Source: Spirochaetota bacterium (lineage in GTDB: Bacteria; Spirochaetota; UBA4802; UB4802). From it: DNA of 64,000 nt. The translations under genes were made by a program, and so were the position numbers. The notes under the pieces were generated by a model, which saw only the letters and a list, made by a program, of their open reading frames with translations, did no database searches and was not told where the DNA came from. The stretch lies in assembly GCA_026414805.1 (NCBI GenBank), contig JAOAIH010000002.1, positions 7,156 to 71,155 on the forward strand, written 5' to 3'. Numbering within the stretch: the stretch's first letter is position 1; every line of letters begins with the position of its first letter. Below, one piece after another: positions 20,066 to 63,866 of this stretch.

Positions 20066-21179
20066 AGATATACTGACTGCCATCCTGTTCAAAGATTTCA
20101 ATAATAAAACCGTTAATGCCCAATTCTTCAGCCAACTGTATTTTAATATTCATGCTTTCATCAAGAGTTGAAAAATGACCTGCATAAATTTCAAAAGATT
20201 TTGATTTTCGTACAATATGTACAGGCGTTGTATAGTTTATAATCAATTTTTGCAATTCTTTTGCTTTTTGTAAATTATACAAAGGACCAATGCTAATGGT
20301 GTAATACATCATTGCTTTTTGTGGAATTTCCTTTTCTTCAATATCTGGCTTAATGTCTATTACCATACTTTGTGCAACTATTTTTTCATCGGGAATAAAC
20401 GCAACTGATTTTGGATTATATTTTTTTAAATTTTGAATATTTATTAATGCCTTGGCAGCCTCGGGTGATTTAGGGTAGCGTGTAATTAGAAAATTATACG
20501 ATGAATATGCCTCATTGTACATGGTGTGGTGCTCATAATATTGCCCCAGTTGAAGCAATAATGTTGGGTATATGGCAGCATCAGAATATCCATGCAAAAG
20601 TTCGGCCAGCCCCTTTATATATTGACGTGCATATCCATACATGAGCCTCTCCATTTCGGTTTTAAGAAATAATCCGTATGCTAACGTATTGATTTCACGT
20701 GAGAGGTGAGGAATCTTTTCACAATCTACAGCACCATCATCATAGTGGCTGTGATTAAAATGAGCTATCGCCCGCAATTGTAAAAATATTGGGAGATAGT
20801 TACTGGCGCTACACTCCTTGATTGCCTGACTAGATGTTAATAATAGATTGCCCCAATCGCTTTTCATGTAATACAGCTGGCATAACGATAGATATGCTAC
20901 GTCACGCTTTTTGTAAAACCGATAGAAGCTTAAAATTTTTTGGTATTCAGAAATGCTTGCATCAGCAGTTGGAGCATACGCTGCAATAAGCATTCTGATA
21001 TCGGGAATAAATGTGCTATTGGGGTACTGATTAAAAAATTTTTTTGTAAGCTCATGTTTATTATTACTATTGATTTTGAAAGCTTTTTGTATTGCTTCAA
21101 AATCTGACTGCTCACTTGCAGCAGCCATGCTGGCATAGAGCAACACAATGAGAATTGTTTTATGCACTACGCTCAGCAT
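20055..21179 (-). CDS. secreted TPR-like protein with possible C-terminal SPOR-like domain
   Basis: Signal peptide (MLSVVHKTILIVLLYASMAAAS), a helical repeat-like middle region, and a C-terminal ~75 aa segment ('YYTISIGPLYNLQKAKEL...FEIYAGHFSTLDESMNIKIQLAEELGINGFII') resembling SPOR domains. Overlaps miaB by 20 bp and mutS by 11 bp. Confidence 0.4.
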   Translation of the reverse strand: MLSVVHKTILIVLLYASMAAASEQSDFEAIQKAFKINSNNKHELTKKFFNQYPNSTFIPDIRMLIAAYAPTADASISEYQKILSFYRFYKKRDVAYLSLCQLYYMKSDWGNLLLTSSQAIKECSASNYLPIFLQLRAIAHFNHSHYDDGAVDCEKIPHLSREINTLAYGLFLKTEMERLMYGYARQYIKGLAELLHGYSDAAIYPTLLLQLGQYYEHHTMYNEAYSSYNFLITRYPKSPEAAKALINIQNLKKYNPKSVAFIPDEKIVAQSMVIDIKPDIEEKEIPQKAMMYYTISIGPLYNLQKAKELQKLIINYTTPVHIVRKSKSFEIYAGHFSTLDESMNIKIQLAEELGINGFIIEIFEQDGSQYIYGQ

Positions 21180-23674: not shown

Positions 23675-23905
23675 AGAATCCTCTTGGTAATAGTATAATG
23701 TAATGGTTACAATAGTTAATTGTGGTACGTCAAGTAAAAGTTGAGTTATATAATTTTTTTCAAAATATAAAACAATTTACATACCTAGCTTATAGAGCAT
23801 ATGCGACATAATAATATTTTGAATATATGTATAATAATAATTATATGTAAAAAAATACATTTATTGAAAAATGTTATATTTTTTCATTATTTTTTTGTTT
23901 TTTTA

Positions 23906-23935
23906 TTGACTTTTTTCGATAAAAAGTATTAATAT
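23906..23935 (+). promoter_or_regulatory. putative sigma70-type promoter (TTGACT-N18-TAATAT) for the surface-protein locus
   Basis: TTGACT at 23906..23911, an 18-nt spacer, then TAATAT at 23930..23935, in a 320-bp AT-rich divergent intergenic region. Same architecture as the thiDN candidate promoter. Confidence 0.3.
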
Positions 23936-23951
23936 ATAAGTGATTATTATG

Positions 23952-23991
23952 ACTGGACGGTTTTAATTATATTATTAATATCACTGGACGG
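23952..23991 (+). repeat. two copies of GC-rich 9-mer ACTGGACGG in direct orientation, 31 bp apart, in the 5' leader of the first locus gene
   Basis: ACTGGACGG at 23952..23960 and again at 23983..23991. This is the only GC-rich element in the intergenic region, and the second copy ends 3 nt before the ATG at 23995. Confidence 0.5.
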
Positions 23992-23994
23992 AAA

Positions 23995-24873
23995 ATGCAT
24001 TTTATAACTAAAAAATATCTTATATCCAGTGATTTCGTTATTATTTTTATAATAATGCCTTTCATAGTATGTTACCATTTACATTGTACTCCAGTATTAA
24101 AAGATTTTAGAGTGTATAAATTACACGGAGAAATATATATAGATAGCAATAAAGCCCAATTACATCAAACAGTAAATAATAACACAATAGAAACCAATTC
24201 TTCATCATATTGTGTAATAGGTAATGATACTACGTATATTTTTATAACTGGAAACAGCGCAATTGATTTTGACATTGATAATACAAAAAAAAGCATTAAT
24301 ATACAAATAAATAGAGGAAACATAATTTTAATATCCGATAAAATTATAAAAAATATAACCGTAACCACTCCAATATATGAATACAATGGCGATATAAAAA
24401 ATATTCAAATAATGACCAAAGATGATGCTTTGTTATTATGGAGTCTAGAAGCTAAGGGGACGCTGAAAAATACAAAGGATAATATAGTTAAATTTATTGA
24501 TAATAAACATCAATTTATTCAGGCCGATCAGGATGTTGTATATTTAGAAATGGATACAAACATTTATGATGAACTTAGAAACAACGCCGAAATATTTAAA
24601 AAGGGTTTAATGCACAACAATTTAGAAGAGAATTTTATGCATCAAAAACTTATCGCTTTGGGCAACAAAGATATAAAAGAAACAATTATGCTAGCACTTT
24701 TGGAAAAAAGGGAAGGTAAATTAAAAAAGGTTATAACAAAAAGTGGGAATGAATATATTGGAATAGCTGTTGCACGAGGTAAAATGTTAGAAATATTAAC
24801 TGTAAAAGGCAAAATAGTGATTCCACAATCAAATGTTAAGTATGTTTTATATTATTCGCCTTTTTTAGAGTGA
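23995..24873 (+). CDS. hypothetical membrane-anchored protein, first gene of surface-protein locus
   Basis: 292-aa ORF with an N-terminal TM helix (FVIIFIIMPFIVCYHL) followed by an Asn/Ile/Lys-rich extracytoplasmic region. No recognisable catalytic motif. Confidence 0.5.
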   Translation: MHFITKKYLISSDFVIIFIIMPFIVCYHLHCTPVLKDFRVYKLHGEIYIDSNKAQLHQTVNNNTIETNSSSYCVIGNDTTYIFITGNSAIDFDIDNTKKSINIQINRGNIILISDKIIKNITVTTPIYEYNGDIKNIQIMTKDDALLLWSLEAKGTLKNTKDNIVKFIDNKHQFIQADQDVVYLEMDTNIYDELRNNAEIFKKGLMHNNLEENFMHQKLIALGNKDIKETIMLALLEKREGKLKKVITKSGNEYIGIAVARGKMLEILTVKGKIVIPQSNVKYVLYYSPFLE

Positions 24874-24904
24874 TACTATCATAAGGTTATTGTATGAGGT
24901 TTCA

Positions 24905-27900
24905 ATGAACATAATAACAAAAAATACACACAATAGAACATTCACAAATAATAGATATATAACAATATTTTTCATTATTTTTATTGTATTTATTAATGGT
25001 TGTGTTGGAGGAGGTAATTCCGCAGATACCGAACCACCAGTTGTGATAAGTTTTACTCCGCACCGTGGTCAGACAGATGTGCCAATAAACACGCAAATAG
25101 TTGTTACATTCAGCAAAAGCGTTATTAATATAAATTCAAATACATTTTATATAGAAAAGTTGAGCGGTGGGAAAATAGCTGCCAGTATAATGTACAATGA
25201 TAGTACAAGAACTGCCGTATTGCAGTTGTTGGAAAATTTAGATTATAATTCGATATATTATGTTACCCTAACCAGTGAAATAAGAAGCCGTTCGGGGGTG
25301 GCTCTGATACCTGAAGCCTGGGCATTTATTACAGGAATTCAGGCTGATACGCAAAAACCAACAATTATTGAAAAAAGCCCTGCTTATGAATATTACGTTA
25401 ATTTAAGTACACCAATATATATTGTATTTAGTGAACCTGTCATCAATGTAAATTCAACTACTGTTTTTATTAAGAAAGGGAATGATATACTCCAGGCAAG
25501 TGTTGCTTATAATGAAACCACCAGAAAAGCAGAGATAACTCCATCACAACCGCTTGAGGAATGGACACGTTATACTATAGTTTTGACCGATAGTATAACT
25601 GATTTGTCAGGAAATTCGCTTGATGCGTATCAATATACCTTCCGTACTGATGACACAACCTATCCCTCTGTAATCAGCAAATACCCTGAGGGTGATGAAA
25701 TTCCTACTAATTCGCTGATCTCTGTCACATTCAGTGAATCGATTAAAAGTTATACTATAACAAATGTAAATAATTTTAAATTAGAAAAATGGACAGGTGC
25801 TACATGGGAAAATGTTGAGAGAATAATTACCTATAACGATAATACTAAAACAGCAATATGTTACTCTCAGAGTGGATTGGAACCCAATACAGAGTATAAA
25901 GTAACATTGAAAAAAGATATTCGCGATCAGGCACATAATCCATTAAATCAGGAAACCACTTGGCAATTTACCACTAAAAATGAACCGGATACCACACCTC
26001 CTCAGCTATCTTCAAAAGTTCCTAATGATAATCAAACAAATGTTCCAACTGATACAGTTATCACTATAACCTTCAATGAAAATGTTTTAGGGGTTGATTC
26101 TACATCGTTTGTGGTGAAGCGTGCTGATACTAATGAAGCAGTTCAGGGTACAGTTATATATAATCATAACATGTATCAGGCAACCTTTACGCCTGTATTT
26201 ACTCTTGCAGAGGGTGTTTGGTATAAAGTTGAATTGTCATCAAATATTCATGATACAGCAAATAATATGCTTGTGCCAGTGAGCTGGCAATTTAAAACTC
26301 AGGACACCACTAAGCCTGATATAACATATCGGTATCCATCAAACGGAATGGGAAATGTGGGAAATAATGTTAATATAGTTGTGACTTTTAGTGAAAGGGT
26401 TAATAATGTTTCTGTACAATCGTTTAAGATCCGCAATGAAACAACAGGACAATATATTGCAGGAAATGTGACCTATAATGATGCAACAAAAACTGCCACA
26501 TTTGATCCTGATGATCCATTGCCGTTTGAAACAACATTTACTGTTGTCCTCACAAACGATATAAAAGATGCAAGTGATAATAGTTTGAATTATACAGAAT
26601 GGTCATTTCAAACCGGTATTGAACCCGATACAACACCACCTTCAATTGTATCACGTTATCCATCTTCTGGACAAACAAATATACCCATATCATCCACTAT
26701 TCAAATACAATTCAGCGAACCTGTATCAGGAGTAGGTCCACAAACAATACAGTTAAAAAAAGGCGATCAAAATGGCATACCTATTCCTGTAATGGTAAAC
26801 TATGACTCGATATCCCAGCGAGTAAACATAACTCCACTCGGTAACCTGGAATATGAATCCCAATATACTGTTGTAGTAATAGGTGGCGATAGCTCCGACA
26901 TAAAGGACGTGGCTGGCAACAGATTTGCTTCAACTGTAAACTGGTCGTTTGCAACAACTGCTGATACTACATCACCGTATGTAACTTTTAAATCACCGGA
27001 ACAGGGGACTCCCGATATTCCTGGGAATGCTGTTGAAGTTCGAGTGCTTTTCAGCGAACAGGTAATGAATGTAAATACAAATACATTTAAATTACGAAGG
27101 GTTTCCGATAATACCGAGATATCCTGTAATGTAACGTATAGTTACAATCCTCAGAATAATATTGCACAAGCTGTTTTGACACCTCTTGCCAATATTACAG
27201 TGACTGGTACATATAGAGCAGAATTATCAAGCGCAATAACCGACATGTCTGTTGCACAAAATCCTTTACAGGCAGTACAATGGACATTTGAAATTACCGC
27301 AATTGATGAAACTGCACCAACGGTAGTGCTTAAATCTCCTGCTGCTGGGAATACCAACTGGAATAATAAAAAGGTTACCGTTATCTTTAGTGAAGATGTC
27401 AAAGGTGTAAGTGGTAGTTCATTTTTTATAAAAGATCAGTATAATACTACAATCCCTGCTACCGTCACTTATTATCCAGGTTTGCTTACTGCAGAATTAG
27501 AGGTTCTACAGGATCTTGAATATGAAAAAACCTTTACTGCATATTTAACCAATGCTATTAAGGATAAAGCAAATAATACACTATCACCAATATCATGGTC
27601 TTTTAGCACTCCACAGGATAGCATACCACCTTTTGTGTCAACTGTATATCCTCCAGATGGTACAACCGGATATCCGGTTAATGGTAGCATTTGGGCAAAA
27701 TTTTCTGAACCAATTCAAGGATATAGCAGTTCATCATTTTATCTAGATCCCCCTGTAAGTGCCACAATAGTGTATGATGAGCAAACAAAAACCCTGACTT
27801 TGATTCCTCAGTCCAACATGCAGGGTCAAACACAGTATACAGTACGTATTACCACAGCTATAAAAGACAGAGCTAATATTCCCAATTCGCTGCTTAACGA

Positions 27901-29833
27901 TTATATATGGCGTTTTACCACGCAATATGTACCGGATACCACACCACCTACAATAGTTGCTGGAAGCCGTTTCCCCGCTCCTGGCACAGTTAACGTACCA
28001 CTGAATTCCAATATCAGATTACAGTTTTCAGAAGCTGTAAAAAATATTGAAAAAATCACTTTGAAAAAAGGTACCATTACTATACCAGTTGAAATTTCGT
28101 ATAATCCAGCAACTTTTACAGTGACACTTGACCCAATTGATAATTTAGAACAGAATACAGTGTATACTGTTACAGTACCTGGTGGTTCCACTGGTATTGT
28201 AATCATGGACTTGGCCGACAACAGGCTTGCATCAACTGATACATGGCAATTTACTACAGAACTTGATACAACCCCACCATCAATTATTTCACGATATCCG
28301 GTGCCGGGGGCAGTCAATGTACAATTGAAGCCTGTTATAACAGTTACATTCAGTGAACCGGTTGTAAATGTTACCACTTCTACCTTTACATTAAGCGGAA
28401 GCGGCGTTGGGACATTTTATGTTGTTTATGATGATGCTACACGGACAGCTACGCTTACCCCAGGAACTGAATTAAGCAACAACACTACATATACAGTAAC
28501 TTTAACCAACGGAATACGCGACAGGTACAATAATTCATTATCAACAACTACATGGACATTTACCACATATAGCTTGCCTCAAATTACCAATATTGAAGTA
28601 TCAAATAATGGTGGCTCAAGCTATTCAGCAATTACAGATGCTGCAACAAATGTTAATTCATTATTAACTCATGTTCGTATAACCTTTAACCGTTCAATGA
28701 ATACCGAAAAACAATGGTTACAGATTTATGAAGGGGCTTCGGGCTCTACAACTCCAGCACCGTTAACACCTTTTAATTACTTCTGGGATTCAAACAATAC
28801 CAGAATAACGTATATATTAAAAGGTCGATGCAAAGGAGGAACACAATATCAGTTTAAACTGTTTGGTTGGGGTGGTAGTTTTGAAGATACTGATGGGAAC
28901 AGAGTGAGCAGAACAGCCTATGTTGGTGATGGTATTTTAAATTTTACCACTGCCGCTGATAGTATTGCACCACTTGTTATTGCTACAATACCTTATAATA
29001 GCGCTACAAATGTAGGAAGAGATATTGGTTTTATTATCATACAATTTAACGAAATGATGAATCAATCCAGGGATTCACGCATAACACTATCCCCAGCAAT
29101 AACTGCTACACGTCAGGGATGGATTGAAGGTGGCAGGACAGTTATATTTACAATTGGGCAACTTGCAGCCAACACTACATATTCAGTAACACTTAATTCA
29201 GGAACAAACAGTTTTCAGGATCTGGCAGGGAATAATGCTGCAGCTTCTGGACAGGTTATCTGTACTTTTACAACCGGGACTACCACTGGTTCATCCACAC
29301 AACTTTCAGAAAGCTTTGAAAATTATTCCCAACCATATTTTTCTAACTTTAAAAATATAAGTACCGATAACACCGATTGGATTAGAATTACGACCGAACG
29401 CTCAGGTAATGGTTCTACTCTGTCACCTCCGCAGGGCAGTTACTTTGCCAAAGCAGCAAGCTTTGAATATGATCCTGGCACATATTCAGATATAGTGAAC
29501 ATAAATTCAATTAATATGTCTACGCTGGGAAGTTATATATTAACATTCCAGATGTATCATGAAAGGATTTACAATGCCCCAGACAGAATAGAAGTGTTAT
29601 TAAGTACTGATGGAATTAACTTTAATCCCATAGATACTGGAGCAATGGGTCAGGTATACCGCTATGACTGGTCATTAGGCAACGATAATCCAGTGTGGCA
29701 AACACACTATGTTGATCTTTCTGCCTTTTCAGGTCCGGGGTATAATTCCGTATGGATAAAATTACGAGCTTACTCAGCAGGTGAAATGGGACAAAATATC
29801 ATTGTAGATGATGTTAGATTGCTGAAATATTAG
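24905..29833 (+). CDS. giant surface lipoprotein with 13 tandem SbsA/Big_5-type Ig-like domains and a C-terminal MAM/jelly-roll-like domain
   Basis: Signal peptide with a lipobox-like 'FINGC'. Thirteen ~105-aa units each open with a D-T-T-P-P-x-(V/I)-x-S-x-x-P motif followed by '...F.VvF(S/N)E.V.....tF.l' (e.g. ADTEPPVVISFTP, PDTTPPQLSSKVP, PDTTPPSIVSRYP, DTTPPSIISRYP). The last ~200 aa ('...YVDLSAFSGPGYNSVWIKLRAYSAGEMGQNIIVDDVRLL') resemble a MAM/choice-of-anchor-type beta-sandwich. Start assigned to ATG 24905 with a GAGGT Shine-Dalgarno; the ORF is open from TTG 24890. Confidence 0.8.
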   Translation: MNIITKNTHNRTFTNNRYITIFFIIFIVFINGCVGGGNSADTEPPVVISFTPHRGQTDVPINTQIVVTFSKSVININSNTFYIEKLSGGKIAASIMYNDSTRTAVLQLLENLDYNSIYYVTLTSEIRSRSGVALIPEAWAFITGIQADTQKPTIIEKSPAYEYYVNLSTPIYIVFSEPVINVNSTTVFIKKGNDILQASVAYNETTRKAEITPSQPLEEWTRYTIVLTDSITDLSGNSLDAYQYTFRTDDTTYPSVISKYPEGDEIPTNSLISVTFSESIKSYTITNVNNFKLEKWTGATWENVERIITYNDNTKTAICYSQSGLEPNTEYKVTLKKDIRDQAHNPLNQETTWQFTTKNEPDTTPPQLSSKVPNDNQTNVPTDTVITITFNENVLGVDSTSFVVKRADTNEAVQGTVIYNHNMYQATFTPVFTLAEGVWYKVELSSNIHDTANNMLVPVSWQFKTQDTTKPDITYRYPSNGMGNVGNNVNIVVTFSERVNNVSVQSFKIRNETTGQYIAGNVTYNDATKTATFDPDDPLPFETTFTVVLTNDIKDASDNSLNYTEWSFQTGIEPDTTPPSIVSRYPSSGQTNIPISSTIQIQFSEPVSGVGPQTIQLKKGDQNGIPIPVMVNYDSISQRVNITPLGNLEYESQYTVVVIGGDSSDIKDVAGNRFASTVNWSFATTADTTSPYVTFKSPEQGTPDIPGNAVEVRVLFSEQVMNVNTNTFKLRRVSDNTEISCNVTYSYNPQNNIAQAVLTPLANITVTGTYRAELSSAITDMSVAQNPLQAVQWTFEITAIDETAPTVVLKSPAAGNTNWNNKKVTVIFSEDVKGVSGSSFFIKDQYNTTIPATVTYYPGLLTAELEVLQDLEYEKTFTAYLTNAIKDKANNTLSPISWSFSTPQDSIPPFVSTVYPPDGTTGYPVNGSIWAKFSEPIQGYSSSSFYLDPPVSATIVYDEQTKTLTLIPQSNMQGQTQYTVRITTAIKDRANIPNSLLNDYIWRFTTQYVPDTTPPTIVAGSRFPAPGTVNVPLNSNIRLQFSEAVKNIEKITLKKGTITIPVEISYNPATFTVTLDPIDNLEQNTVYTVTVPGGSTGIVIMDLADNRLASTDTWQFTTELDTTPPSIISRYPVPGAVNVQLKPVITVTFSEPVVNVTTSTFTLSGSGVGTFYVVYDDATRTATLTPGTELSNNTTYTVTLTNGIRDRYNNSLSTTTWTFTTYSLPQITNIEVSNNGGSSYSAITDAATNVNSLLTHVRITFNRSMNTEKQWLQIYEGASGSTTPAPLTPFNYFWDSNNTRITYILKGRCKGGTQYQFKLFGWGGSFEDTDGNRVSRTAYVGDGILNFTTAADSIAPLVIATIPYNSATNVGRDIGFIIIQFNEMMNQSRDSRITLSPAITATRQGWIEGGRTVIFTIGQLAANTTYSVTLNSGTNSFQDLAGNNAAASGQVICTFTTGTTTGSSTQLSESFENYSQPYFSNFKNISTDNTDWIRITTERSGNGSTLSPPQGSYFAKAASFEYDPGTYSDIVNINSINMSTLGSYILTFQMYHERIYNAPDRIEVLLSTDGINFNPIDTGAMGQVYRYDWSLGNDNPVWQTHYVDLSAFSGPGYNSVWIKLRAYSAGEMGQNIIVDDVRLLKY

Positions 29834-29923
29834 TGTTTTATGAACTGGTTAACAACGCATGTTTTGTTACATGAAACATATTATTAATACAACTGCTAAC
29901 CCAAAAAGGGGTGGAGTAATAGT

Positions 29924-32900
29924 ATGAGACGATTGATTTGGTTAATTTTATTACTGGCTATTTCAAATATTGTATGCAGCGGTGATGTTTTTCACAATTA
30001 TAAAAAAGAACGCGATACAATGAGTATTCCCTATACGCCAGATACTACTCCTCCCCACATTGTAGAGGTAAAGGCATTAACAAGTAATACCATAAAAGTT
30101 ATTTTTGATGAACAAATTGATCCAGCAACAGCACTAAACTATGCTAATTATTATATTCAAGGCATCAATAGAGTAAATGTATTGTCTAACCCTGCACCAA
30201 GCATGGATGGCAGCAATGCTGTAATTCTCAACGTTTCAACTGGCCTTGAGTATGGAATGCACCACGGTAAACAATACACACTATTAGCTCAAAATATTAA
30301 AGATATTTCTGGGAATATATTACTGAATGGCATTTCCCAATTTACTGGTAAGGGTCAAATTGTTGCATCTATATGGTTTTATGATAAAAATAATGATTTG
30401 CGCCAGTTTAGCGATGATCTAGATTATATATATTTTAATTCTAAAAATATTGAATTTATAATTAAAGTAAATGATGATACAAATGGTTACTATTCTTATT
30501 CGATAGATGATTTACCTTACAGCAGCGAAATCCCGTGTACTGATAAATTAATTTTATCTAATCTTTCTGATGGTGTGCATACTCTACAAGTAATAGGAAA
30601 GGATAGTCAGGGGAAACTGCAAGATTTAAACCAGCCATCTTCAGTTTCATTTATTGTTGATACTACACCACCTGTTGCAACATTATCAAAGTTACCTGAA
30701 AGCGTAACAAATAACACTGAAATCGCGGTAGTAGTTGGCGGATTGGATGTAGTGATGTATCGATTTAGGCTCAATAACGAACCGTGGAGCAACGTTATAT
30801 CCGTAAACACACCTATTATCAGAAAAAAATTACTTGGCGGTAACTATCGCCTTGAAGTAAAAGGAATTGATAGCGCAGGTAATGAGCAAAATATTGCCAC
30901 AGCATATCAATGGAGAGTAACATCAGGCAATAGCATCTACTTTGTCAGTAAACCAGAACGTTATACTCGTTTACGAAATGTTGATGTAACACTTGGTGGT
31001 GAAAATATATATTTTTATAAGTATAGCATCAACAATAATATATGGAGCGGGTATATTTCTATAGATCAGCCAATAGTTTTACGAAACTTGCAGGATGGTG
31101 ATTACACAATACGTGTGATAGGAGCTGTCATCCCAGGCGATACTCCATCCGAAACCGATGAAATTGAATACACTTGGACTGTTGATACTAAACCTCCAGT
31201 ATGTACACTCAGCAACTTACCAGCAAATTTTACCAATAAGCAACGAGTTACGATGGTTGTTTCATCTACCGATGGTGAAGTGGTGGCCTATAAATATAAA
31301 CTTTTCAGAAACGGATATCTTCATGAAGAAAGTGGTGTATGTAGTGTAACACAACCATTGGAGTTGAGCAATCTGTCTGAAGCATCATATACTCTTAAAG
31401 TTATGGGAATAGACAAAGCGGGCAATATACAAAGCGAATCAAGTGCAACCGAATATACCTGGACAATAGATTTAACACCACCACAAGTAAGTCTTTATAA
31501 TTTGCCGGCAAGAGATTCCAAAATAAATTCTATTGATATAGCAGTTGGACCACCTGATGTGGTTTCATATAAATATTGTCTAAATACAGTAACCTGGTCA
31601 CAGGAAATAAATAGATCTATTAACATAACCAGAGCAAACCTGTCAGATGGCATCTATACACTATCGGTAATAGGTAAAGATCTTGCAGGGAACTGGCAGA
31701 GTTTTCAAACTCCAACTCAGCATATTTGGGAAATTGATACAACCCCACCTACTGCTGTGTTACTTAATAAACCTCCTGAAGTAACAAATTTACAGAGTGC
31801 CGATTTTGTAATAGGCGGAGTAGGAGTAGTTAAATACAGATATAAATATAACGGTGGAGAATGGAGTCAGGAATATGACCGGATTCAATATCCAAATATT
31901 GTACTCGATAATCTATATGAAGGTTCCCATACCATCCAGGTAATAGGATGTGATAAAGCTGGAAACTGGCAAATCATTCCAACACAGTATACATGGTCAA
32001 TCAATGTTTCATTACCAACTGCTATTTTAAGTGGTACCCCATCATACTATTCTAACGTAAATAATATAAATATTACTGTTGGTGGTGCAGGGATTATAGC
32101 ATATAGATATAAAATTGATAATCAATCATGGAGCGCAGAAATTGATGTTTCAAATCCTATAGTAATATCTAATTTATCCGAAGGGTACCATATCATCAAA
32201 GTAATAGGGAAAAACAGTTTGAATCAATGGCAATCTGTTGAAGCAGCTACTACTTTTGAATGGATAATTGATACAGTTCCTCCAGTTGCGCAGCTTACAA
32301 ATACACCACAAAGCCCAACAAACAACCAGTCCATAGCAATTAAAGTATATGGAGTGGGAGTGTATGCATATAAATATTCTCTGGATGATCCTGATCCGCG
32401 CGGCAGTCAGGAATTTTTAATTGATACTGATGATACAATTAATATTGATAATATACTAGGTGGTCAACACACATTGTATGTTATAGCCCGAGATGAAGCT
32501 GGAAACTGGCAGGATTATAATCACCCTACAACATATATTTGGACAATTGATACCAGTACACCAACAGCTATGTTTGATGCAGCTACATTGCCAAAAAATA
32601 TAACCAATCAAACAGGTATTAATATTAAAGTAATGGGTAGCAATATTGTTAAATATAAATATAAATTGGATACATTACCATGGAGCGGTGAAATTGATGT
32701 TAATGACCCTATTATGCGATTGGGATTAGCGGAAGGAACGCATATAGTCAAAGTTATAGGTAAAAATGAAGCAGGAACCTGGCAATCAGAAAGCAATGCA
32801 ACTGAATACAGCTGGATAATTGATATAACTCCACCAGCTCCGCCAGAAATACTTTTACAAAACCTTCCAAATAATTTAACCAATGAAACAAGTATTAATA

Positions 32901-35137
32901 TTATTGTCAATGGAACAGGAATAACACATTACAGATATAAACTAAATGAAGAAAACTGGAGTGATCCTATTCTACTGGGTACTAATATTGTACGTTCTGG
33001 ATTAATTGAAAATACATACAATCTTTATGTGATAGCAAAGGATGAAGCTGGAAATTGGACAAGTGAAAGTAATGCAAAAACATACTCATGGCGTGTTGAT
33101 TATACCAGTCCAATTGCAGCTATTACAAACAGACCTGATAATCCATCAAACCAAAACTGGGCTGAATTCATAATAGCGGGCACAGGGATTGTGCAATATA
33201 AATATAAAATAGATAATGGGTTGTGGAGTGATTGGGTTGATGTCAATCAGCATATAATTTTAAATAATCTACCTGATGGAATACATACAATTTCTGTGTG
33301 CGGACGAAAAAGTTCCAATCCACCTTATTTTGAACAGGCAGAACAGGATGCAACAACGTATACATGGGAAGTAGATACCGTTGCACCAACTGCTGTATTA
33401 AGCAACCTGCCATCAAATCCAACTACCAATACTTCAATAAGTATTACAGTAGGAGGTTTGCAGGTTGTGGCATATCGATACAGAATTAATAATGGAGCAT
33501 GGATACCTGTTACATCTGAAATCATCAAAGAATTCCCTATTGTCTTGAGCGGTCTTACCCCGGGTAACTATCAAATTGATGTTGTTGCTCGTGATTTAGC
33601 TGGTAACTGGCAAATCATACCAACAAGCTACGTATGGACAATAAATCCTCCTCCTCTTGTGTCACCAGCAACAGTGGATATTGGTGAATACAGTACATCT
33701 GCTGCACTAATGTTCAGTTGGGTGCGCCCGTATGGTACAGCAGATGTAAAAATACAAATAGCGTCTGATACCAATTTCAGCAATGTTGTTTTTGAAAGTG
33801 TAGTTGGCAACGTAGACAGCTATACATTTGTAGCGCAAAGTACCGAAATAGAACGTTATTATGCGCGTGTGGCTGTCAATGATCAACCTGGTAAGCCTTT
33901 AAATGATCCAAGCTGGAAACCATGGGGACAGGCAAGTAATGGAATTGCTATGGTGGGTTCAGTAAGTGGTGTTGTTAAAAATGCAGTAGGATTTGCAGCA
34001 TTGAGTAATGTAACTATTGAGTTAAGAAAAATGATTGATAATTCATTAATAGATACCACCACAACCGACACCAACGGTGGATTTACTTTTACTGGAGTAC
34101 CAATAGGCAGCAATAAATATAAACTTGTTGCTTCTCTTACAGGTTATTATACCGCAACAAAAAATAATATTACCATTACATTAGGTGTACAATTAAGCGC
34201 AGGAACAATATATCTTGTGCCAACCTCTGCATCAAGCGGTACCATTACCGGTACAGTCATTGATGCCAATGATGCAAGTAAATTAGCGGGAGTAACCGTT
34301 GAGGTATATAACTGGCAAAATATTTTAGTAGCATCTACAGTGACTGCATCAGGAGGTACATTTACAACAACAACGTTAAGTCCCGGTGTATATTCTGTAT
34401 TGTTTAAAAGGACTAACTATTATGATCTTTTAGTAGATAATATCGTAGTCAATGGCAACAGAGATATAGGACGCCAGGCAATTTGTGCATATCTTGTTGA
34501 GCCAATGGTACGTGTAATAGTGTTATGGGGACAAAACCCTCAGGATCTTGACCTGCACGTTGTTGGTCCAACATCACAAACAGTTGTCGAAGCCGATACT
34601 GCCTATAATAATCCTCAAAACAGATTCCATGTGGGCTATATTGGATATACAAATTATAAATGGCAATATAATTATAATGAACTCACTGGTGCATACGAAA
34701 GAGGTGATGATAAAAGCTCAACTACAGTTCCCGATAGAACAGGTACAAAATCAACCACTGCATTAGTACAGGATGTATATCCTGGAAATACCATTACAGG
34801 TTCCGGTTATGGTCCTGAGGCAATTAATTTATGGCGCTACGGAGGAGTTCAGTATGCCAGAGGTATTTTCACTTATACTGTCAGGAATTGGTCAGGAACT
34901 GATTGGTATGCTGGCGGAAGAGATGTCATAGTAAGGATATATGATTCACAAGGTATGGTACAGCAGATATTAATGCCGCAGGGAGCAACTGACCCTGGAA
35001 ATACAACCCGAGATTGGAAAGCGGTAAAAATCAATATACAGGGGAATACGCGTTCAAAACGTATTATTTATGTGCCAACGCAAGGAGTATTTTTCAATGC
35101 CGGTGTGGATAGAAACAAGGCTGGTTTTGACTGGTAA
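29924..35137 (+). CDS. giant secreted/surface protein: N-terminal Ig-like domain, 11 tandem ~90-aa beta-sandwich repeats, two carboxypeptidase-regulatory-like domains, PPC-like C-terminal domain
   Basis: GGGGTGGAG Shine-Dalgarno and signal peptide (MRRLIWLILLLAISNIVCSG). Repeats at ~30658..33660 share the pattern 'DTTPP.a.L.n.P...TN.......V.G.g...Y(R/K)YK.n...WS.........L.dG.H...V.g.D.AGNWQ'. These are followed by 'GVVKNAVGFAALSNVTIEL...TDTNGGFTFTGVP' and 'GTITGTVIDANDASKLAGVTVEVY' (CarbopepD_reg-like) and a C-terminus with 'VIVLWGQNPQDLDLHVVGP' (pre-peptidase C-terminal-like). Confidence 0.8.
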   Translation: MRRLIWLILLLAISNIVCSGDVFHNYKKERDTMSIPYTPDTTPPHIVEVKALTSNTIKVIFDEQIDPATALNYANYYIQGINRVNVLSNPAPSMDGSNAVILNVSTGLEYGMHHGKQYTLLAQNIKDISGNILLNGISQFTGKGQIVASIWFYDKNNDLRQFSDDLDYIYFNSKNIEFIIKVNDDTNGYYSYSIDDLPYSSEIPCTDKLILSNLSDGVHTLQVIGKDSQGKLQDLNQPSSVSFIVDTTPPVATLSKLPESVTNNTEIAVVVGGLDVVMYRFRLNNEPWSNVISVNTPIIRKKLLGGNYRLEVKGIDSAGNEQNIATAYQWRVTSGNSIYFVSKPERYTRLRNVDVTLGGENIYFYKYSINNNIWSGYISIDQPIVLRNLQDGDYTIRVIGAVIPGDTPSETDEIEYTWTVDTKPPVCTLSNLPANFTNKQRVTMVVSSTDGEVVAYKYKLFRNGYLHEESGVCSVTQPLELSNLSEASYTLKVMGIDKAGNIQSESSATEYTWTIDLTPPQVSLYNLPARDSKINSIDIAVGPPDVVSYKYCLNTVTWSQEINRSINITRANLSDGIYTLSVIGKDLAGNWQSFQTPTQHIWEIDTTPPTAVLLNKPPEVTNLQSADFVIGGVGVVKYRYKYNGGEWSQEYDRIQYPNIVLDNLYEGSHTIQVIGCDKAGNWQIIPTQYTWSINVSLPTAILSGTPSYYSNVNNINITVGGAGIIAYRYKIDNQSWSAEIDVSNPIVISNLSEGYHIIKVIGKNSLNQWQSVEAATTFEWIIDTVPPVAQLTNTPQSPTNNQSIAIKVYGVGVYAYKYSLDDPDPRGSQEFLIDTDDTINIDNILGGQHTLYVIARDEAGNWQDYNHPTTYIWTIDTSTPTAMFDAATLPKNITNQTGINIKVMGSNIVKYKYKLDTLPWSGEIDVNDPIMRLGLAEGTHIVKVIGKNEAGTWQSESNATEYSWIIDITPPAPPEILLQNLPNNLTNETSINIIVNGTGITHYRYKLNEENWSDPILLGTNIVRSGLIENTYNLYVIAKDEAGNWTSESNAKTYSWRVDYTSPIAAITNRPDNPSNQNWAEFIIAGTGIVQYKYKIDNGLWSDWVDVNQHIILNNLPDGIHTISVCGRKSSNPPYFEQAEQDATTYTWEVDTVAPTAVLSNLPSNPTTNTSISITVGGLQVVAYRYRINNGAWIPVTSEIIKEFPIVLSGLTPGNYQIDVVARDLAGNWQIIPTSYVWTINPPPLVSPATVDIGEYSTSAALMFSWVRPYGTADVKIQIASDTNFSNVVFESVVGNVDSYTFVAQSTEIERYYARVAVNDQPGKPLNDPSWKPWGQASNGIAMVGSVSGVVKNAVGFAALSNVTIELRKMIDNSLIDTTTTDTNGGFTFTGVPIGSNKYKLVASLTGYYTATKNNITITLGVQLSAGTIYLVPTSASSGTITGTVIDANDASKLAGVTVEVYNWQNILVASTVTASGGTFTTTTLSPGVYSVLFKRTNYYDLLVDNIVVNGNRDIGRQAICAYLVEPMVRVIVLWGQNPQDLDLHVVGPTSQTVVEADTAYNNPQNRFHVGYIGYTNYKWQYNYNELTGAYERGDDKSSTTVPDRTGTKSTTALVQDVYPGNTITGSGYGPEAINLWRYGGVQYARGIFTYTVRNWSGTDWYAGGRDVIVRIYDSQGMVQQILMPQGATDPGNTTRDWKAVKINIQGNTRSKRIIYVPTQGVFFNAGVDRNKAGFDW

Positions 35138-35148
35138 AATCTGTTATA

Positions 35149-35190
35149 CACTGCAGCATTGAAAATGAAAATCTACTCTTTGCTGCAGTG
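35149..35190. repeat. perfect 10-bp inverted repeat CACTGCAGCA/TGCTGCAGTG with 22-nt loop, 12 bp after the giant gene stop
   Basis: Arms at 35149..35158 and 35181..35190. It contains two PstI-type CTGCAG cores. No U-run follows, so it is not a canonical intrinsic terminator. Confidence 0.5.
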
Positions 35191-35375
35191 AAGATTTCAA
35201 GCAGCAAAAAACTTTACTTTAAAAGTTGTGTTGATAATGGTGACAGTGAGACTTCTTTACATAATTTAATAGATTTTACAAATAGAGCTGAATGAAATTA
35301 ATGGGGAAATTTTAGAATTTGTTTAAAAAAATTATATAAAATAAAGAAGTTAAATATAAATTAAGAGTTAAAGAA

Positions 35376-36002
35376 ATGATGCAAAAAAAAGTGCAATTGG
35401 TCATTACTGTTTATATCCTATTTATGTTTTCATTAAAGCTGTATGCTCAGCAAAAACAGGCCGATATAAAAAAACAAAAGTTTGAACCAACCAAGCCTGC
35501 TATTGAAATACAAAAAACAAATGATACAAAACAATATAGTAATATTATTTTTGCAATGTCTGGTGGATATTTTTCCCCTTTAGGAACCGAGTCTGTGATG
35601 TTAAATGGTAGCTGGATGATTAAATCGTTTATTCAGCAAAATAATATTGAAAATACCCTTTTTGGAATAGGTGGCGATTTGCTTTACACAAAACTTCAGG
35701 ATAAAAAGTATGATGGTTATATAATGTATGTAACATTTATACCAAATGCAACAGCAGTATTTCCATTGTACAAGAATTTAATGGTAATACTAAAAGCCGG
35801 ACCAGGCTTTACAGTACTACATTCACATTTAAATGACTTAAATGAAAGCTCACTATCAATGACATTAGCAGCTGGTGCAGGATTATTTATAATTATAAGT
35901 CAGCAATTTATATGGGGTATTGAAAACATGTATCATTATTACTTTCAGATACATGCTTCATCATCGTTAAGTTATTATTCCTATATTGGATATAGATGGT
36001 AA
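35376..36002 (+). CDS. small secreted protein, predicted outer-membrane beta-barrel (OmpW/OmpA-like size class)
   Basis: Cleavable signal peptide (MMQKKVQLVITVYILFMFSLKLYAQQ). Alternating hydrophobic beta-strand pattern with an aromatic C-terminus (...YSYIGYRW). 208 aa. Confidence 0.5.
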   Translation: MMQKKVQLVITVYILFMFSLKLYAQQKQADIKKQKFEPTKPAIEIQKTNDTKQYSNIIFAMSGGYFSPLGTESVMLNGSWMIKSFIQQNNIENTLFGIGGDLLYTKLQDKKYDGYIMYVTFIPNATAVFPLYKNLMVILKAGPGFTVLHSHLNDLNESSLSMTLAAGAGLFIIISQQFIWGIENMYHYYFQIHASSSLSYYSYIGYRW

Positions 36003-36047
36003 TTTTTGGAGTAATGGCATAATAAAATTAATTATCGGAGGAATAAA

Positions 36048-37550
36048 ATGAAAAGAATTGTCACAGTAATGGTATTAATGTTGAATTTTGTTTTTTTTGC
36101 ATTCAGGTTATCTGCTACTACTACCAGAGATATGGGACTTGGATTATTTGAATACCCCTGGTTTATTGATGGGTTGCAGTCGTATATCTATGAAAACCCT
36201 GCATATATCAGCAATTACGGTGACAAGATATATGCTGAGCGAATTGGAATTATAAATGGGGAAAATAAAGGTGGTGTCATTTATAATATAAAAAATAATT
36301 TGTTTATTGGAGTAGATTTGGGATCTCCAGTTGATACAAGCCTATGGAATACTAATGCTGTAGATAGCTTATTTAATGTAGATGTTTATTCAGCAAAATG
36401 TAAATCACACTACAACCATTCTATTATTACATCACAGTCAATGAAAGCATATCAGGTTGAATTGCTTGATGAAACAATTTTAGATATAAAAGATCCCTAT
36501 GATGCAAGTGAGCTTGTTGGTACCAACACTACATCGCCTCAATTACGTGAAAAGCTTAATCAGCGAAACTTCAGTGCATTATTTGGCTATAAGTTAAATA
36601 AATTTAGTGTTGGTTTTTATGCAGGCTACGCCACTTCATGGAAACATTACCGTGACAGCACTTCGGCAACAAATTCACATGAAGAATATAATCTAATCAA
36701 TGCTGAGTATTCTGCCAAATTAGGAGTTTCATATATAATAAATAATAAGGTAAGCTTTGATATATCAGGATTCTTTTTCATGTATGCATTAGACAATAAT
36801 TATATGCAAAGAAAGCCTGGTATTGATTTTGATATGTCATACAAATCGGACGGTGCAATGGATTTTGGATCAAATCTAAGAGTTAATTATGCAATGACTA
36901 ATAATCAAAAAGTGCATTTTTATGTAAGTTACTGGATGTTAAACAGAAGTACAAAAGGTGAGATGCTTATATCTGATTCAAAACCCATTAATAATGTAAA
37001 TGCTACTGATACCTTTGAACGTAAAGGTCAGAAAATAAGTGCTGGTGTTTCAGATGAGATAAGTATTGATAAGAATATGATAGTGTTCATTGGATTTTTA
37101 ACTAATATAGAATTCTTTAAAAATAATTACTACGGAGTGGATGCCATAACTCCCGCAAATAACGTAGATACGTATACGTTAAATTACAAGGCAATAGAAG
37201 TACCCGTAATAATTGGCCTTGAAGCTAATGTAAGTGAAAATTGGAAAGGACGCTTAGGGCTTGTGCAAAAGATATACAAACCATTGTCGTATGATGGTAC
37301 CAATATAATTAATCAAGGTGCAAATAAGATTCCTACCACCATTGATGAAATATCATCTTCATCTTCTACATTATATACAGGGCTATCCTATAAATTAAAT
37401 AATTTTACTTTTGATTGGCTGATGAATGTTGAATTATTTACGGTTGGTCCATACATTATTTCAGGTAAGTCCTGGACGGCTAATAATGAAAATCCTTTGG
37501 CTTTTGCATTTGCAATTACTTATAATTTTGAAACCAAAAGTAGTGAATAA
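36048..37550 (+). CDS. secreted 500-aa protein, predicted outer-membrane beta-barrel of unknown family
   Basis: GGAGG Shine-Dalgarno and signal peptide. Numerous amphipathic beta-strand segments rich in Y/F/N/S/G ('FSVGFYAGYATSW', 'VSFDISGFFFMYAL', 'VHFYVSYWML', 'LAFAFAITYNFE'). No soluble POTRA-like N-domain. Confidence 0.45.
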   Translation: MKRIVTVMVLMLNFVFFAFRLSATTTRDMGLGLFEYPWFIDGLQSYIYENPAYISNYGDKIYAERIGIINGENKGGVIYNIKNNLFIGVDLGSPVDTSLWNTNAVDSLFNVDVYSAKCKSHYNHSIITSQSMKAYQVELLDETILDIKDPYDASELVGTNTTSPQLREKLNQRNFSALFGYKLNKFSVGFYAGYATSWKHYRDSTSATNSHEEYNLINAEYSAKLGVSYIINNKVSFDISGFFFMYALDNNYMQRKPGIDFDMSYKSDGAMDFGSNLRVNYAMTNNQKVHFYVSYWMLNRSTKGEMLISDSKPINNVNATDTFERKGQKISAGVSDEISIDKNMIVFIGFLTNIEFFKNNYYGVDAITPANNVDTYTLNYKAIEVPVIIGLEANVSENWKGRLGLVQKIYKPLSYDGTNIINQGANKIPTTIDEISSSSSTLYTGLSYKLNNFTFDWLMNVELFTVGPYIISGKSWTANNENPLAFAFAITYNFETKSSE

Positions 37551-37576
37551 TCTAACTGTTATTTTAAAAAAGAAGA

Positions 37577-37605
37577 CCCCTGAATTATCCAGGGGTTTTC
37601 TTTTT
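37577..37605 (+). terminator. rho-independent terminator closing the surface-protein locus
   Basis: CCCCTG-aattatc-CAGGGG hairpin (37577..37595) followed by TTTTCTTTTT. Lies 27 nt after the stop of the 36048..37550 gene. Confidence 0.85.
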
Positions 37606-37784: not shown

Positions 37785-39923
37785 ATGGGGGTTGTGATGG
37801 AAGCAAAAAATATAATAAGGCAATTCCAGAAATATGGTACAGGTGTTATTTTATTCAATGCGATTATATTTATCATTATATTACAGCTTTCATTCCCACT
37901 ATTTCAGGATACAAGATTATTAATTACATTTTTAATCTTATGGGTTATTTCGTTTACCTCATTATTTATTTATTATATGTGGATGGTTAAAAGTATAATT
38001 AAAATTATTGAATCGGATGATGAGCAAAAAGAATACAAAATTTTTAATAAATTTAAAGTAAGTGCTAAGCAAACGATGCTTTTGAACATTGGTTATTTGG
38101 TTTTAGTTTATATTCCGCTATTCTTTTTTATGTATTTCCTGTATGGATACAATAATGTATATTATCACTTTTATGTTTTTTTTATTTTAGCATTTGTATT
38201 CTTGTTTTTGGGATTTAATTCGATGTTAGTTTGGTATACTCGTACATATCCCCTTGGAAGATTTGGTATACCAATTGCTGTGCAACGATTGCGAAGCAAG
38301 ATAGTTAGTATAGTATTGCCTATAACATTACTAACATCTGTGTTTATGTTGGTGCTATTTTATAAAATTGATAAATCCAATGTTGAATCATTAACTGCTT
38401 CTAGGATATTTGATGTTTTACAACAAATACAGATTGATTCAAAAGACTCATTTATTAAATCAATACCATCTATAGTTAATGAATATAATGGTGTAGTATT
38501 GGTTTGTGAGGATGAACAAATTGTTCAATGTAACAAGGAAGAATTTATTTCACAAAACATCCATAAAATTATAAATAAAGGCAAACAACCACAATTTCTA
38601 TATAACAAGACAATCAATTTTTTAAAAAATATAAAGAATAAAAACTTTTCAAGTACTGAAGGTGTATTTGAAGGTGAACAGGCGGTTTTATTTACTTATT
38701 CAGTACCTGATAGCAATAAAATAATACTTGTTGCATTCATAGAAAAAATATTATATTCTTCGGTATATAAGAGCATCTTTTATATCACATTAGGAATGAT
38801 TATTATTAATTTAGCAATCAGATATATAATTAACCGTCGTTTGATGAATTTGTCTTTAGCATTGGATATTGCTATGCCTTCATTACAGAAAGCTACTCGT
38901 GGTGATCTAACCGGCGAAATTAAACTTATAAAATCCCGCGACATAATGGAAGATTTTATTCGCAGTTTTATTGGCTTCAGGGAGCAGATAATTGATTTTA
39001 TACGCAAATCAAATGAACTCAGCGAAAAGGTATTGCTGTCATCTGAAGCTCTGGCATTTTCAGGAAAATCAATAAAGGAAGAAGCTGCTCAACAGGCTCA
39101 AAATATTGAAGAGGTGACCTCAATAATTGCAGAAGTATCAGGTGCTTTTTACACAATAGCTTCTGATGCCAACAAACAAAGTGAAATCTTAAAAAACCTT
39201 GAAGATATTATAAATAATCTCAATGAGGCAATGAATAGGCTCAATAACGATGCTAAACAGGTTATAGTTGCAATTCAAGGGGTACAAAAAAGTGCTCGTG
39301 ATAGTGAAACGCTGGTAACAAGTACTGCAGAATCTTCAAAACAAATTGCAACATTTTTTGAAAACATCATGAATGTTATTGGCCTAATATCAGATATTGC
39401 CGAACAGGTTAACCTGCTATCGCTTAACGCATCCATAGAAGCTGCACGCGCTGGTGAGCATGGAAGGGGGTTTGCCGTTGTTGCAGAAGAAATATCGCGG
39501 CTTGCAGACAGAACTGCACAAAATCTAAAGGAGATCACTAAGATCGTAAATGAAGGTAACACCGCGATGAACAGTAATATGAATATGATGAGCACAATGC
39601 GTCATGTACTGCTTTCTATTATTCAGGATATTGAACGCAGTGTAAATTTAATCACTGGTTTCATTGAAACAATCAATCAGCGGGTAATGGATTTTGCAAG
39701 GATCCATGAAGGCATTGCCAGTGCAAGTGAGTTTTCAAAGGGGCTATCGCTATCAATGGCCGAATTAAGTGATAATACCAAAAAGATAGTACAGTCTATT
39801 GAAAGTGTGAATGCAGTTGCAGGCCAGTTTGTTTCACTGTCTGAAAATTTAACTACTACTTCTTCAGAACTTGAAGCTATGGCAGCAGAACTTAAAAAGG
39901 TAATAGAACGATTCAAGATATAA
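37785..39923 (+). CDS. methyl-accepting chemotaxis protein with polytopic N-terminal membrane domain and HAMP
   Basis: About 6 N-terminal TM helices, a ~130-aa extracytoplasmic segment, another TM, a HAMP region, then the MCP signalling domain ('[35 protein letters not shown]'). The stop abuts the convergent purB stop with zero spacing. Confidence 0.85.
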
Positions 39924-63850: not shown

Positions 63851-63866
63851 AAAATGAAATATTATA

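Follow-up and report, generated by a model that had tools for sequence, protein, structure and literature searches.

A conserved four-gene cassette of giant Ig-repeat lipoproteins and predicted outer-membrane barrels in uncultured Spirochaetota, a candidate surface-coat module

Do two giant genes and two small ones that follow each other on one strand of a spirochaetal contig make up a single functional unit, and if so, what would that unit build? The question is raised by a 64,000-nucleotide stretch of DNA from a Spirochaetota bacterium (NCBI GenBank assembly GCA_026414805.1, contig JAOAIH010000002.1, positions 7,156 to 71,155 of the forward strand), here called the window. On its + strand, five co-oriented open reading frames (ORFs), designated g1 to g5, extend over positions 23995-37550. 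All five were present at the starts listed in an earlier note on this DNA (23995, 24905, 29924, 35376 and 36048), with an alternative TTG start for g2 at 24890. That note had taken them for one tightly spaced unit coding for two giant proteins with multiple immunoglobulin-like (Ig-like) domains and two dedicated outer-membrane (OM) beta-barrels, and had proposed a surface-layer (S-layer) or adhesin-like fibre array. The five-gene unit did not hold: the conserved cassette has four genes, g2-g5, and g1 is an orphan outside it. The sequence evidence set out below suggests that this cassette is a spirochaetal coat module made of surface lipoproteins and barrels, a reading to which we assign a probability of about one half.

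Gene order was compared across all loci that had a g5 homologue at least 35% identical to that of the window and for which upstream DNA was present. A Big_5 giant, a Y_Y_Y/CarboxypepD_reg giant, a barrel of ~200 aa and a barrel of ~500 aa followed one another in this order in the window and in related loci L001, L002, L003, L004, L011, L017, L020/L021 and L022. The cassette is present in at least nine distinct Leptospirales/Spirochaetota metagenome-assembled genomes (MAGs), with identities of 35-77% overall and from 35% to 71% for g5. Six truncated contigs (L006, L008, L010, L019, L024 and L029) were consistent with the same order as far as they reach, while the genes flanking the cassette were unrelated between loci. 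The synteny search suggested in the earlier note therefore returned giants followed by two OM proteins in at least nine loci, and within the clade that has both giants these were never seen without the OM protein genes.

The four proteins have also diverged in parallel. Relative to the window, identities in L001, L003, L004, L011 and L002 were 67, 53, 59, 31 and 28% for g2; 72, 53, 63, 42 and 35% for g3; 42, 42, 49, 26 and 27% for g4; and 70, 55, 63, 43 and 35% for g5. This matched divergence argues for a structural assembly rather than a fast-diversifying adhesin. The g5 family as a whole comprised 31 clusters in a word search of 5.8 billion proteins and 213 clusters at 50% identity in a full profile scan of 1.84 billion.

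A reduced, two-gene form came to light in a search that started from the C-terminus of g3. In L026 (6797-11910) and L028 (6794-11839), a g3-like lipoprotein giant of ~1410 aa ending in …FDW stands ahead of a small g4-like barrel whose linker is long and Lys/Ala-rich; both loci lack the Big_5 giant and the larger barrel, which resembles PopA (see below). From these loci the pair of one giant and one barrel can be argued to be the functional core, and their gene content hints at a g3-g4 and a g2-g5 pairing. The cassette or its two-gene variant divergently adjoins cysS in four divergent lineages (L002, 1-1065; L022, 1-1071; L026, 5142-6569; L028, 5124-6572) and lies away from cysS in the window and its closer relatives, which suggests that the cysS neighbourhood is the ancestral position and that relocation came later. 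Recent horizontal acquisition was rejected, since the G+C content of g2 and g3 (37%) is near the window average and the cysS-side position recurs in four divergent lineages, which points to genes of long vertical descent that moved to a new position in this lineage.

Both giants consist of tandem beta-sandwich modules, as the earlier note had described them. The first, g2 (24905-29833, + strand), is a predicted lipoprotein of 1642 aa: a lipobox-like sequence was found at the end of the signal peptide as FINGC (Cys33), and a lipobox Cys also occurs in the orthologues with a visible N-terminus, L002 (MAVSC) and L022 (FATAC). It carries 13 tandem Big_5 domains (Pfam E = 3e-191 over 13 stretches), 11 canonical and two divergent according to the self-built profile, and ends in a ~178-aa jelly-roll with a sub-threshold MAM match (E = 0.0018).

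The second giant, g3 (29924-35137, + strand; 1737 aa), was assigned by domain searches and by the Cys of its orthologues. A signal peptide had been noted for it before and was confirmed, but it proved to be more than a plain one, namely a lipoprotein signal with an invariant Cys. Downstream of the signal peptide and Cys18, a single Big_5-like domain leads into twelve Ig-like repeats of ~89 aa, which match Big_13, Y_Y_Y and OmpL47-type models weakly; an FN3-like module and a pair of CarboxypepD_reg domains come next, and a C-terminal domain of 218 aa closes the protein. The motif that starts at Cys18 reads C-S-G-D-x-F-x-x-Y-K-K-E-R in the window and C-S-G-D/N-x-F/I-x-x-Y-K/Q/E-K/V-x-R across the cassette-bearing clade, and the post-signal Cys was invariant in all orthologues recovered. 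Because signal peptide and Cys are retained in orthologues, both giants are best read as lipoproteins. The C-terminal domain is the best-conserved part of g3 (84% identity to L001 vs 72% over the full length); its last residues are always ...DW, and it had no match in Pfam or by sequence in the PDB. A likeness to DUF2135 (motifs DLDLHV and GYGPEAIN) was dropped for want of Pfam support. PDB sequence searches likewise gave no match for g2, g3, the g5 profile or the g2 C-terminal profile, and a profile spanning both CarboxypepD_reg domains and the g3 C-terminus matched PDB entries through its CarboxypepD_reg part only.

Both giants are acidic (isoelectric points of 4.7 for g2 and 4.9 for g3) and contain much Thr, Ser and Asn but little Cys, a composition typically seen in surface-layer proteins. 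A porin-cytochrome (Mtr-like) complex was ruled out by the lack of CxxCH motifs.

Structure models bore out the expectation that the two small proteins would be OM beta-barrels. The 208-aa product of g4 (35376-36002, + strand) has a signal peptide (…LYA/QQ), a Lys/Glu/Gln-rich linker modelled at low confidence and a predicted 8-stranded beta-barrel of ~150 aa ending in an aromatic residue (…GYRW). A sequence match, the closed 8-stranded barrel of the model and the C-terminal aromatic residue place it in the OMP_b-brl family (PF13505), and it is, on this prediction, an OmpA/NspA-like 8-stranded barrel.

The 500-aa OM protein g5 (36048-37550, + strand; signal peptide …LSA/TTT) had no match in Pfam or NCBIfam, even at E <= 10. 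Its model, built from an alignment of 26 sequences, reached a mean predicted local distance difference test score (pLDDT) of 81.7 and a predicted template modelling score of 0.79. DSSP applied to the model gave strand lengths of 7, 11, 7 and 8, then 20, 21, 22, 24, 24, 25, 22, 20 and 23, then 10, 12, 11 and 10 residues, i.e. four short, nine tall and four short strands, the total being 16 or 17 according to whether one kinked strand is counted as one or two. Conservation within the family peaks at residues 26-57, where the model has short helices at 45-49 and 51-57 and a pLDDT below 50 at residues 32-41. A strongly conserved segment near the N-terminus, TRDMGxGLFEYPWFIDGLQSYIYENPAY, may form a plug. 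A further conserved element is the 20-residue loop at 464-483 (FTVGPYIISGKSWTANNENPL), immediately ahead of the last strand, in which G467, P468 and S472 are invariant and which has low pLDDT in the monomer model.

The closest structural relative of g5 was PopA, clearly ahead of generic barrels, with Foldseek ranking PopA first by a narrow margin. The founding member of this superfamily, Bdellovibrio Bd0427 (PDB 9GA1 and 9GF0), is a 16-stranded plugged barrel and not a porin; its tall outer wall, made up of strands 5-14, is bordered by short strands at either end (1-4 and 14-16), and superfamily members assemble around loop 8 into radial tetramers, pentamers or hexamers that enclose a hydrophobic lipid chamber (PMC12228718). 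Spirochaetal members include TDE_2508, two T. vincentii proteins, Turpa_0960 of Turneriella parva (Leptospirales) and a Brachyspira protein (PMC12228718). The g5 model has the same short end strands and tall central wall in a barrel of ~16 strands, a conserved plug-like N-terminal segment (the plug of PopA being FadL-like and tight) and a conserved loop before the last strand, at the position of the PopA oligomerisation loop 8. It differs in that an insertion of 80 residues separates strands 3 and 4 and in that g5 as a whole exceeds PopA by ~150 aa, and by sequence no similarity between g5 and PopA was detectable. On the strength of the model, g5 is predicted to be a 16-stranded, putatively plugged barrel of the PopA superfamily. 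The only genomic context mentioned for the superfamily is a single operon of two OM proteins (PMC12228718), and none of its members has been reported in linkage with giant lipoproteins.

The closest known counterpart of the cassette is the BT1927-BT1926 pair of Bacteroides thetaiotaomicron and, more broadly, the complexes that surface lipoproteins form with barrels in Bacteroidota. BT1927, an S-layer surface lipoprotein of 100 kDa whose N-terminus is extended and conserved, forms a lattice that reaches ~50 nm from the membrane, and seven more loci share the layout of an S-layer lipoprotein and an OmpA beta-barrel (PMC4611039; bioRxiv 10.1101/521070; PMC12578637). BT1926, which is regarded as the anchor or secretion partner of BT1927, belongs to a type of 8-stranded barrel for which models likewise give radial oligomers around a lipid chamber, making it the second such family (PMC12228718). 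The likeness is one of layout: a gene for a large acidic lipoprotein stands immediately upstream of one for a small 8-stranded OM barrel, as g3 does upstream of g4. The invariant Cys and the C-SGD-x-F-x-x-Y-K-K-E-R peptide of g3 correspond to the conserved extended N-terminus; in all loci g4 directly follows g3, and L026 and L028 have this pair alone. Unlike its Bacteroides counterpart, the cassette occurs in Spirochaetota, has two giants of ~180-190 kDa built of Big_5 and other Ig repeats, and includes a second, PopA-type barrel; its neighbours (CoA-transferase, radical-SAM, MutS and chemotaxis genes) include no recombinase, and there is no invertible promoter or other sign of phase variation.

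Nearer in phylogeny are the Lig proteins. LigA, LigB and LigC are N-terminally triacylated surface lipoproteins with 12-13 tandem bacterial Ig-like domains, and LigB and LigC have two Big_5 domains in a C-terminal extension (PMC7821625). What they share with the giants is the bacterial order and the architecture of an Ig-array lipoprotein only. Lig repeats are Big_2 (PF02368), whereas Pfam finds Big_5, Big_12, Big_13 and Y_Y_Y but no Big_2 on the window giants, and Lig proteins are host-interaction adhesins of pathogenic species. To our knowledge, lig genes do not stand in an operon with OM barrels.

Domain searches against Pfam and NCBIfam and inspection of the neighbouring genes found no hallmark of an autotransporter, of two-partner secretion (TPS) or of the type I or type IX secretion systems, in agreement with the earlier note. 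Autotransporters and inverse autotransporters are set apart by the lack of a barrel domain in the giants, the barrels being separate genes. The type IX Por_Secre_tail had no match in g2 or g3 of the window, and three of the seven C-termini of g3 orthologues gave sub-threshold matches (best E = 0.014). No type I (RTX) domains or neighbouring ABC, membrane fusion protein or TolC genes were found; a Ca_tandemer match fell below its cutoff (42 vs 50 bits), and both giants have Sec-type lipoprotein signals. The further statement that the locus follows no described pathway proved too strong, given the PopA fold of g5 and the BT1927/BT1926 precedent (PMC12228718, PMC4611039, PMC12578637). Our literature search found no description of the cassette itself or of PopA-type barrels linked to giant lipoproteins.

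If the cassette is a coat module, Sec would export the giants, which would be lipidated at the invariant Cys. As dedicated partners, g4 and g5 would hold the N-terminally lipidated giants at the OM and may help to assemble them there, and a fibrous or S-layer-like coat would arise from their rods of 13-17 beta-sandwich domains. We infer the physical association of giants and barrels, surface exposure, oligomerisation of g5 and the coat function, as well as the S-layer or fibre function and the anchor or export role that the earlier note had put forward. Its proposal that the giants and their own OM barrels act as one functional unit stood in so far as the co-encoding is conserved and both proteins are predicted barrels; the count of five genes and the tight spacing did not.

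Several observations weigh against a coat module. All evidence on the cassette is computational and its carriers are all uncultured MAGs; every named homologue of the g5 family is a 'hypothetical protein' of an uncultured Spirochaetota/Leptospirales MAG, and 20 distant members, judged by cluster name, were likewise hypothetical proteins from uncultured Spirochaetota only. The g4 model is of low confidence (pLDDT 58.8), and the place of g5 in the PopA superfamily comes from a monomer model and structural similarity, not from a sequence-level match. Spirochaetal lipoproteins can face the periplasm as well as the surface. More distant g3-like giants occur alone, with no barrel, in L025 and L027, and distant g5-like barrels (<=29% identity), some in tandem arrays, occur without g2- or g3-like giants in L014-L016; the partnership of giant and barrel is therefore clade-specific. 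Finally, a 238-bp spacer with a hairpin parts the giants from the barrels in this window, so that independent or attenuated expression of g4-g5 is possible.

Instead of a static anchor, one or both barrels could be an OM translocon through which the giant lipoproteins reach the surface, as with Slam (type XI secretion) or TPS (FhaC, CdiB), where a dedicated OM barrel gene stands beside the gene of the protein or lipoprotein served (PMC9090332). Substrate-like giants do adjoin the barrels in a conserved order, the conserved post-Cys peptide of g3 could be a recognition signal, and BT1926 was first proposed as a secretion partner of BT1927 (PMC4611039). The passage of spirochaetal surface lipoproteins across the OM is moreover only partly understood, with a Borrelia LptD homologue implicated in the route (bioRxiv 10.1101/2022.12.21.521298) and Slam known in Proteobacteria (PMC9090332). 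Yet neither g4 nor g5 has the TPR or DUF560 domain of Slam, and g5 has ~35 residues before its first strand and ~16 strands vs 14 in Slam; nor was a POTRA/ShlB (TpsB) domain found, or a TPS domain in the giants. Barrels with 8 strands, of the OmpA/NspA type, have a lumen too narrow for a polypeptide. PopA, the best structural match of g5, has a plugged, closed lumen and did not act as a porin when assayed by liposome swelling (PMC12228718), and we regard export as unlikely. Capture and uptake, with giants that bind a polymeric or hydrophobic substrate and g5 as a FadL-like plugged import channel, would by analogy suit the MAM-like jelly-roll end of g2 and the CarboxypepD_reg modules of g3, which occur also in glycan-handling proteins and cellulosomal scaffoldins. 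We think this quite improbable: domain searches found no catalytic or recognised carbohydrate-binding domain, the cassette contains no TonB-dependent receptor, ABC or other uptake gene, the strand-height profile of g5 matches PopA and not the 14-stranded FadL, and rigid repeat rods that total more than 3,000 aa are excessive for a binding protein.

The same proteins might also face inwards, with the giants on the inner leaflet of the OM or on the inner membrane and the barrels as attachment points of a periplasmic or sub-surface scaffold. Not all spirochaetal lipoproteins are surface-exposed, the lipid chamber of PopA faces the periplasmic leaflet (PMC12228718), and the evidence for surface exposure of the PopA-family protein TDE2508 of T. 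denticola is not conclusive (PMC3931704). By our estimate, however, rods of 13-17 Ig-like domains reach tens of nanometres, beyond the width of a typical periplasm, and the composition and domain types of the giants (Big_5/SbsA-type, Lig-like architecture) are typical of exposed proteins, which makes a scaffold of this kind very doubtful. Least credible is mere co-location of two adhesin-like lipoproteins upstream of two ordinary, functionally independent OM protein genes, which we consider highly improbable. Long g3-g4 spacers in the window (238 bp, with the hairpin) and in L001 (299 bp), and distant homologues of each component found alone, would fit it, but the order is kept in at least nine lineages down to 35% identity with flanks that all differ, genes overlap or abut in several relatives, and all four proteins show matched divergence.

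Whether the cassette is expressed as one unit bears on the same question. The earlier note had put all gaps between the five genes at 91 bp or less and the first at 24 bp; neither figure was reproduced, as the g3-g4 spacer measures 238 bp (35138-35375) and g1 is separated from g2 by 31 bp to the ATG and by 16 bp to the TTG. In relatives the g3-g4 spacer is 9, 41, 103, -7 and 12 bp (299 bp in L001, the closest relative) and the g2-g3 spacer 2 to 59 bp, and genes abut or overlap in several of them. A terminator scan of the + strand found no terminator-like element within g2-g5 other than a weak in-gene match. Shine-Dalgarno sequences are good for g2, g3 and g5, with GAGG ahead of the g2 ATG at 24905, and the g2-g3 spacer of the window folds marginally (z = -2.0). 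Downstream of g5, a bidirectional intrinsic terminator at 37565-37605 was recognised by fold energy and T-tract: an A-tract, a stem ACCCCTG…CAGGGGT (37576-37596) and then a T-tract, with a folding energy of -28.1 kcal/mol (z = -6.95). In a crude scan of the whole window it was the strongest terminator of the + strand, as had been claimed for the window at large, but the - strand has a stronger one near 63858. Operon-like gaps in relatives, the lack of an internal terminator and the strong one after g5 together suggest that g2-g5 are co-transcribed.

The hairpin in the g3-g4 spacer (35149-35190, + strand) has a 10-bp stem (CACTGCAGCA / TGCTGCAGTG) and a 22-nt loop without a U-tract (z = -2.5 on folding). 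It may be a partial attenuator, an RNA-stability element or nothing. The idea of a conserved attenuator was dropped, since the hairpin is not conserved in the 299-bp spacer of L001 and has no U-tract; an internal promoter or attenuator in the 238-bp spacer of the window is possible.

The exclusion of g1 (23995-24873, + strand; 292 aa) follows from three observations. Among 5.8 billion proteins its sole match was g1 itself; its G+C content is 26.5% vs ~37% for the giants, ~10 points below its neighbours; and L002 and L022, the two related loci in which the sequence ahead of g2 is visible, have divergent cysS there and no g1. No match in Pfam or NCBIfam was found even at E <= 10. A hydrophobic segment at the N-terminus of the protein contains Cys26 and Cys31. 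By our own estimate a frame of 292 codons in DNA of ~26% G+C is far too long to arise by chance, and g1 is therefore probably a real, lineage-specific gene inserted ahead of the cassette.

Ahead of g1 lies the 320-bp AT-rich divergent intergenic region that had been described before (23675-23994), which separates it from a CoA-transferase gene on the - strand. The GC-rich direct repeat ascribed to this region was also found: two 18-nt copies, ATTATTATGACTGGACGG at 23943-23960 and ATTAATATCACTGGACGG at 23974-23991, are 89% identical, share the exact 9-mer ACTGGACGG at a distance of 31 bp and form a GC-rich island in the AT-rich spacer, the second copy overlapping the ribosome-binding region of g1. 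Only weak AT-rich inverted matches occur besides, and a third ACTGGACGG copy with one mismatch at 37471 is at chance level. The repeat could be a regulator binding site. Its role as operator of the cassette was dropped, as it stands ahead of the orphan g1 and is not demonstrably the cassette's.

Further observations concern the surroundings of the cassette and its homologues. Its place amid housekeeping genes was borne out: upstream on the - strand lie genes for MutS, a MiaB-like radical-SAM enzyme and a CoA-transferase, and downstream those for a methyl-accepting chemotaxis protein, adenylosuccinate lyase, an alanine symporter and an Opp transporter. Proteins of the window correspond to NCBI entries N3F66_00765, N3F66_00780 and N3F66_00785 of a 'Spirochaetes bacterium' MAG. 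Directly past the terminator, positions 37785-39923 (+ strand) encode the chemotaxis protein (712 aa), whose N-terminal part contains several transmembrane segments and which weakly matches SpiroCoCo, a coiled-coil model specific to spirochaetes; the L004 cassette is also near such a protein, a different one, and the closeness is probably coincidence. Two ORFs inside well-annotated housekeeping runs, at 20055-21179 (- strand, 374 aa) and 46317-47228 (+ strand, 303 aa), had no Pfam match at E <= 1e-5, and an Rfam scan of the whole window returned no RNA family. Among the related loci, L016 (2918-7440 and 9950-14450) has three tandem paralogues of the distant g5-like, PopA-like barrel type (510, 510 and 471 aa), and a giant ORF of 2776 aa or more lies ~2.5 kb downstream of them. 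Pfam gave no match for this ORF, and the arrangement may represent another kind of barrel-giant association. In L008 (7841-12125) and L012 (6458-10854), an ORF of more than 1400 aa that runs off the contig end lies ~5.5 kb downstream of the g5 homologue.

A bolder version of the coat module can be sketched, which we offer as speculation and hold to be improbable as it stands. Here g5, and possibly also g4 as a BT1926-like radial oligomer, would form a ring of 5- or 6-fold symmetry, whose periplasm-facing lipid chamber, or else whose rim, would serve as a socket for the lipidated N-termini of the two giants with their conserved motif. The Ig rods would radiate from each ring as from a symmetric hub and tile into an S-layer-like lattice, and the two-gene and four-gene forms would be successive elaborations of a principle shared with BT1927/BT1926. 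If true, this would be the first such structure in Leptospirales, where we know of no S-layers, and would give the lipid-trapping PopA superfamily its first physiological role, that of nucleating surface-lipoprotein arrays.

The surface localisation of spirochaetal lipoproteins is a long-standing open problem, and the cassette, if it is a coat module, would extend the design of a surface lipoprotein with a dedicated barrel beyond Bacteroidota, where it has been called a phylum hallmark, to Spirochaetota. For the PopA superfamily, which dates from 2025 as a defined group and still lacks an established physiological role, the cassette provides a hypothesis from genomic context, namely that PopA-type barrels may be platforms for surface-lipoprotein arrays.

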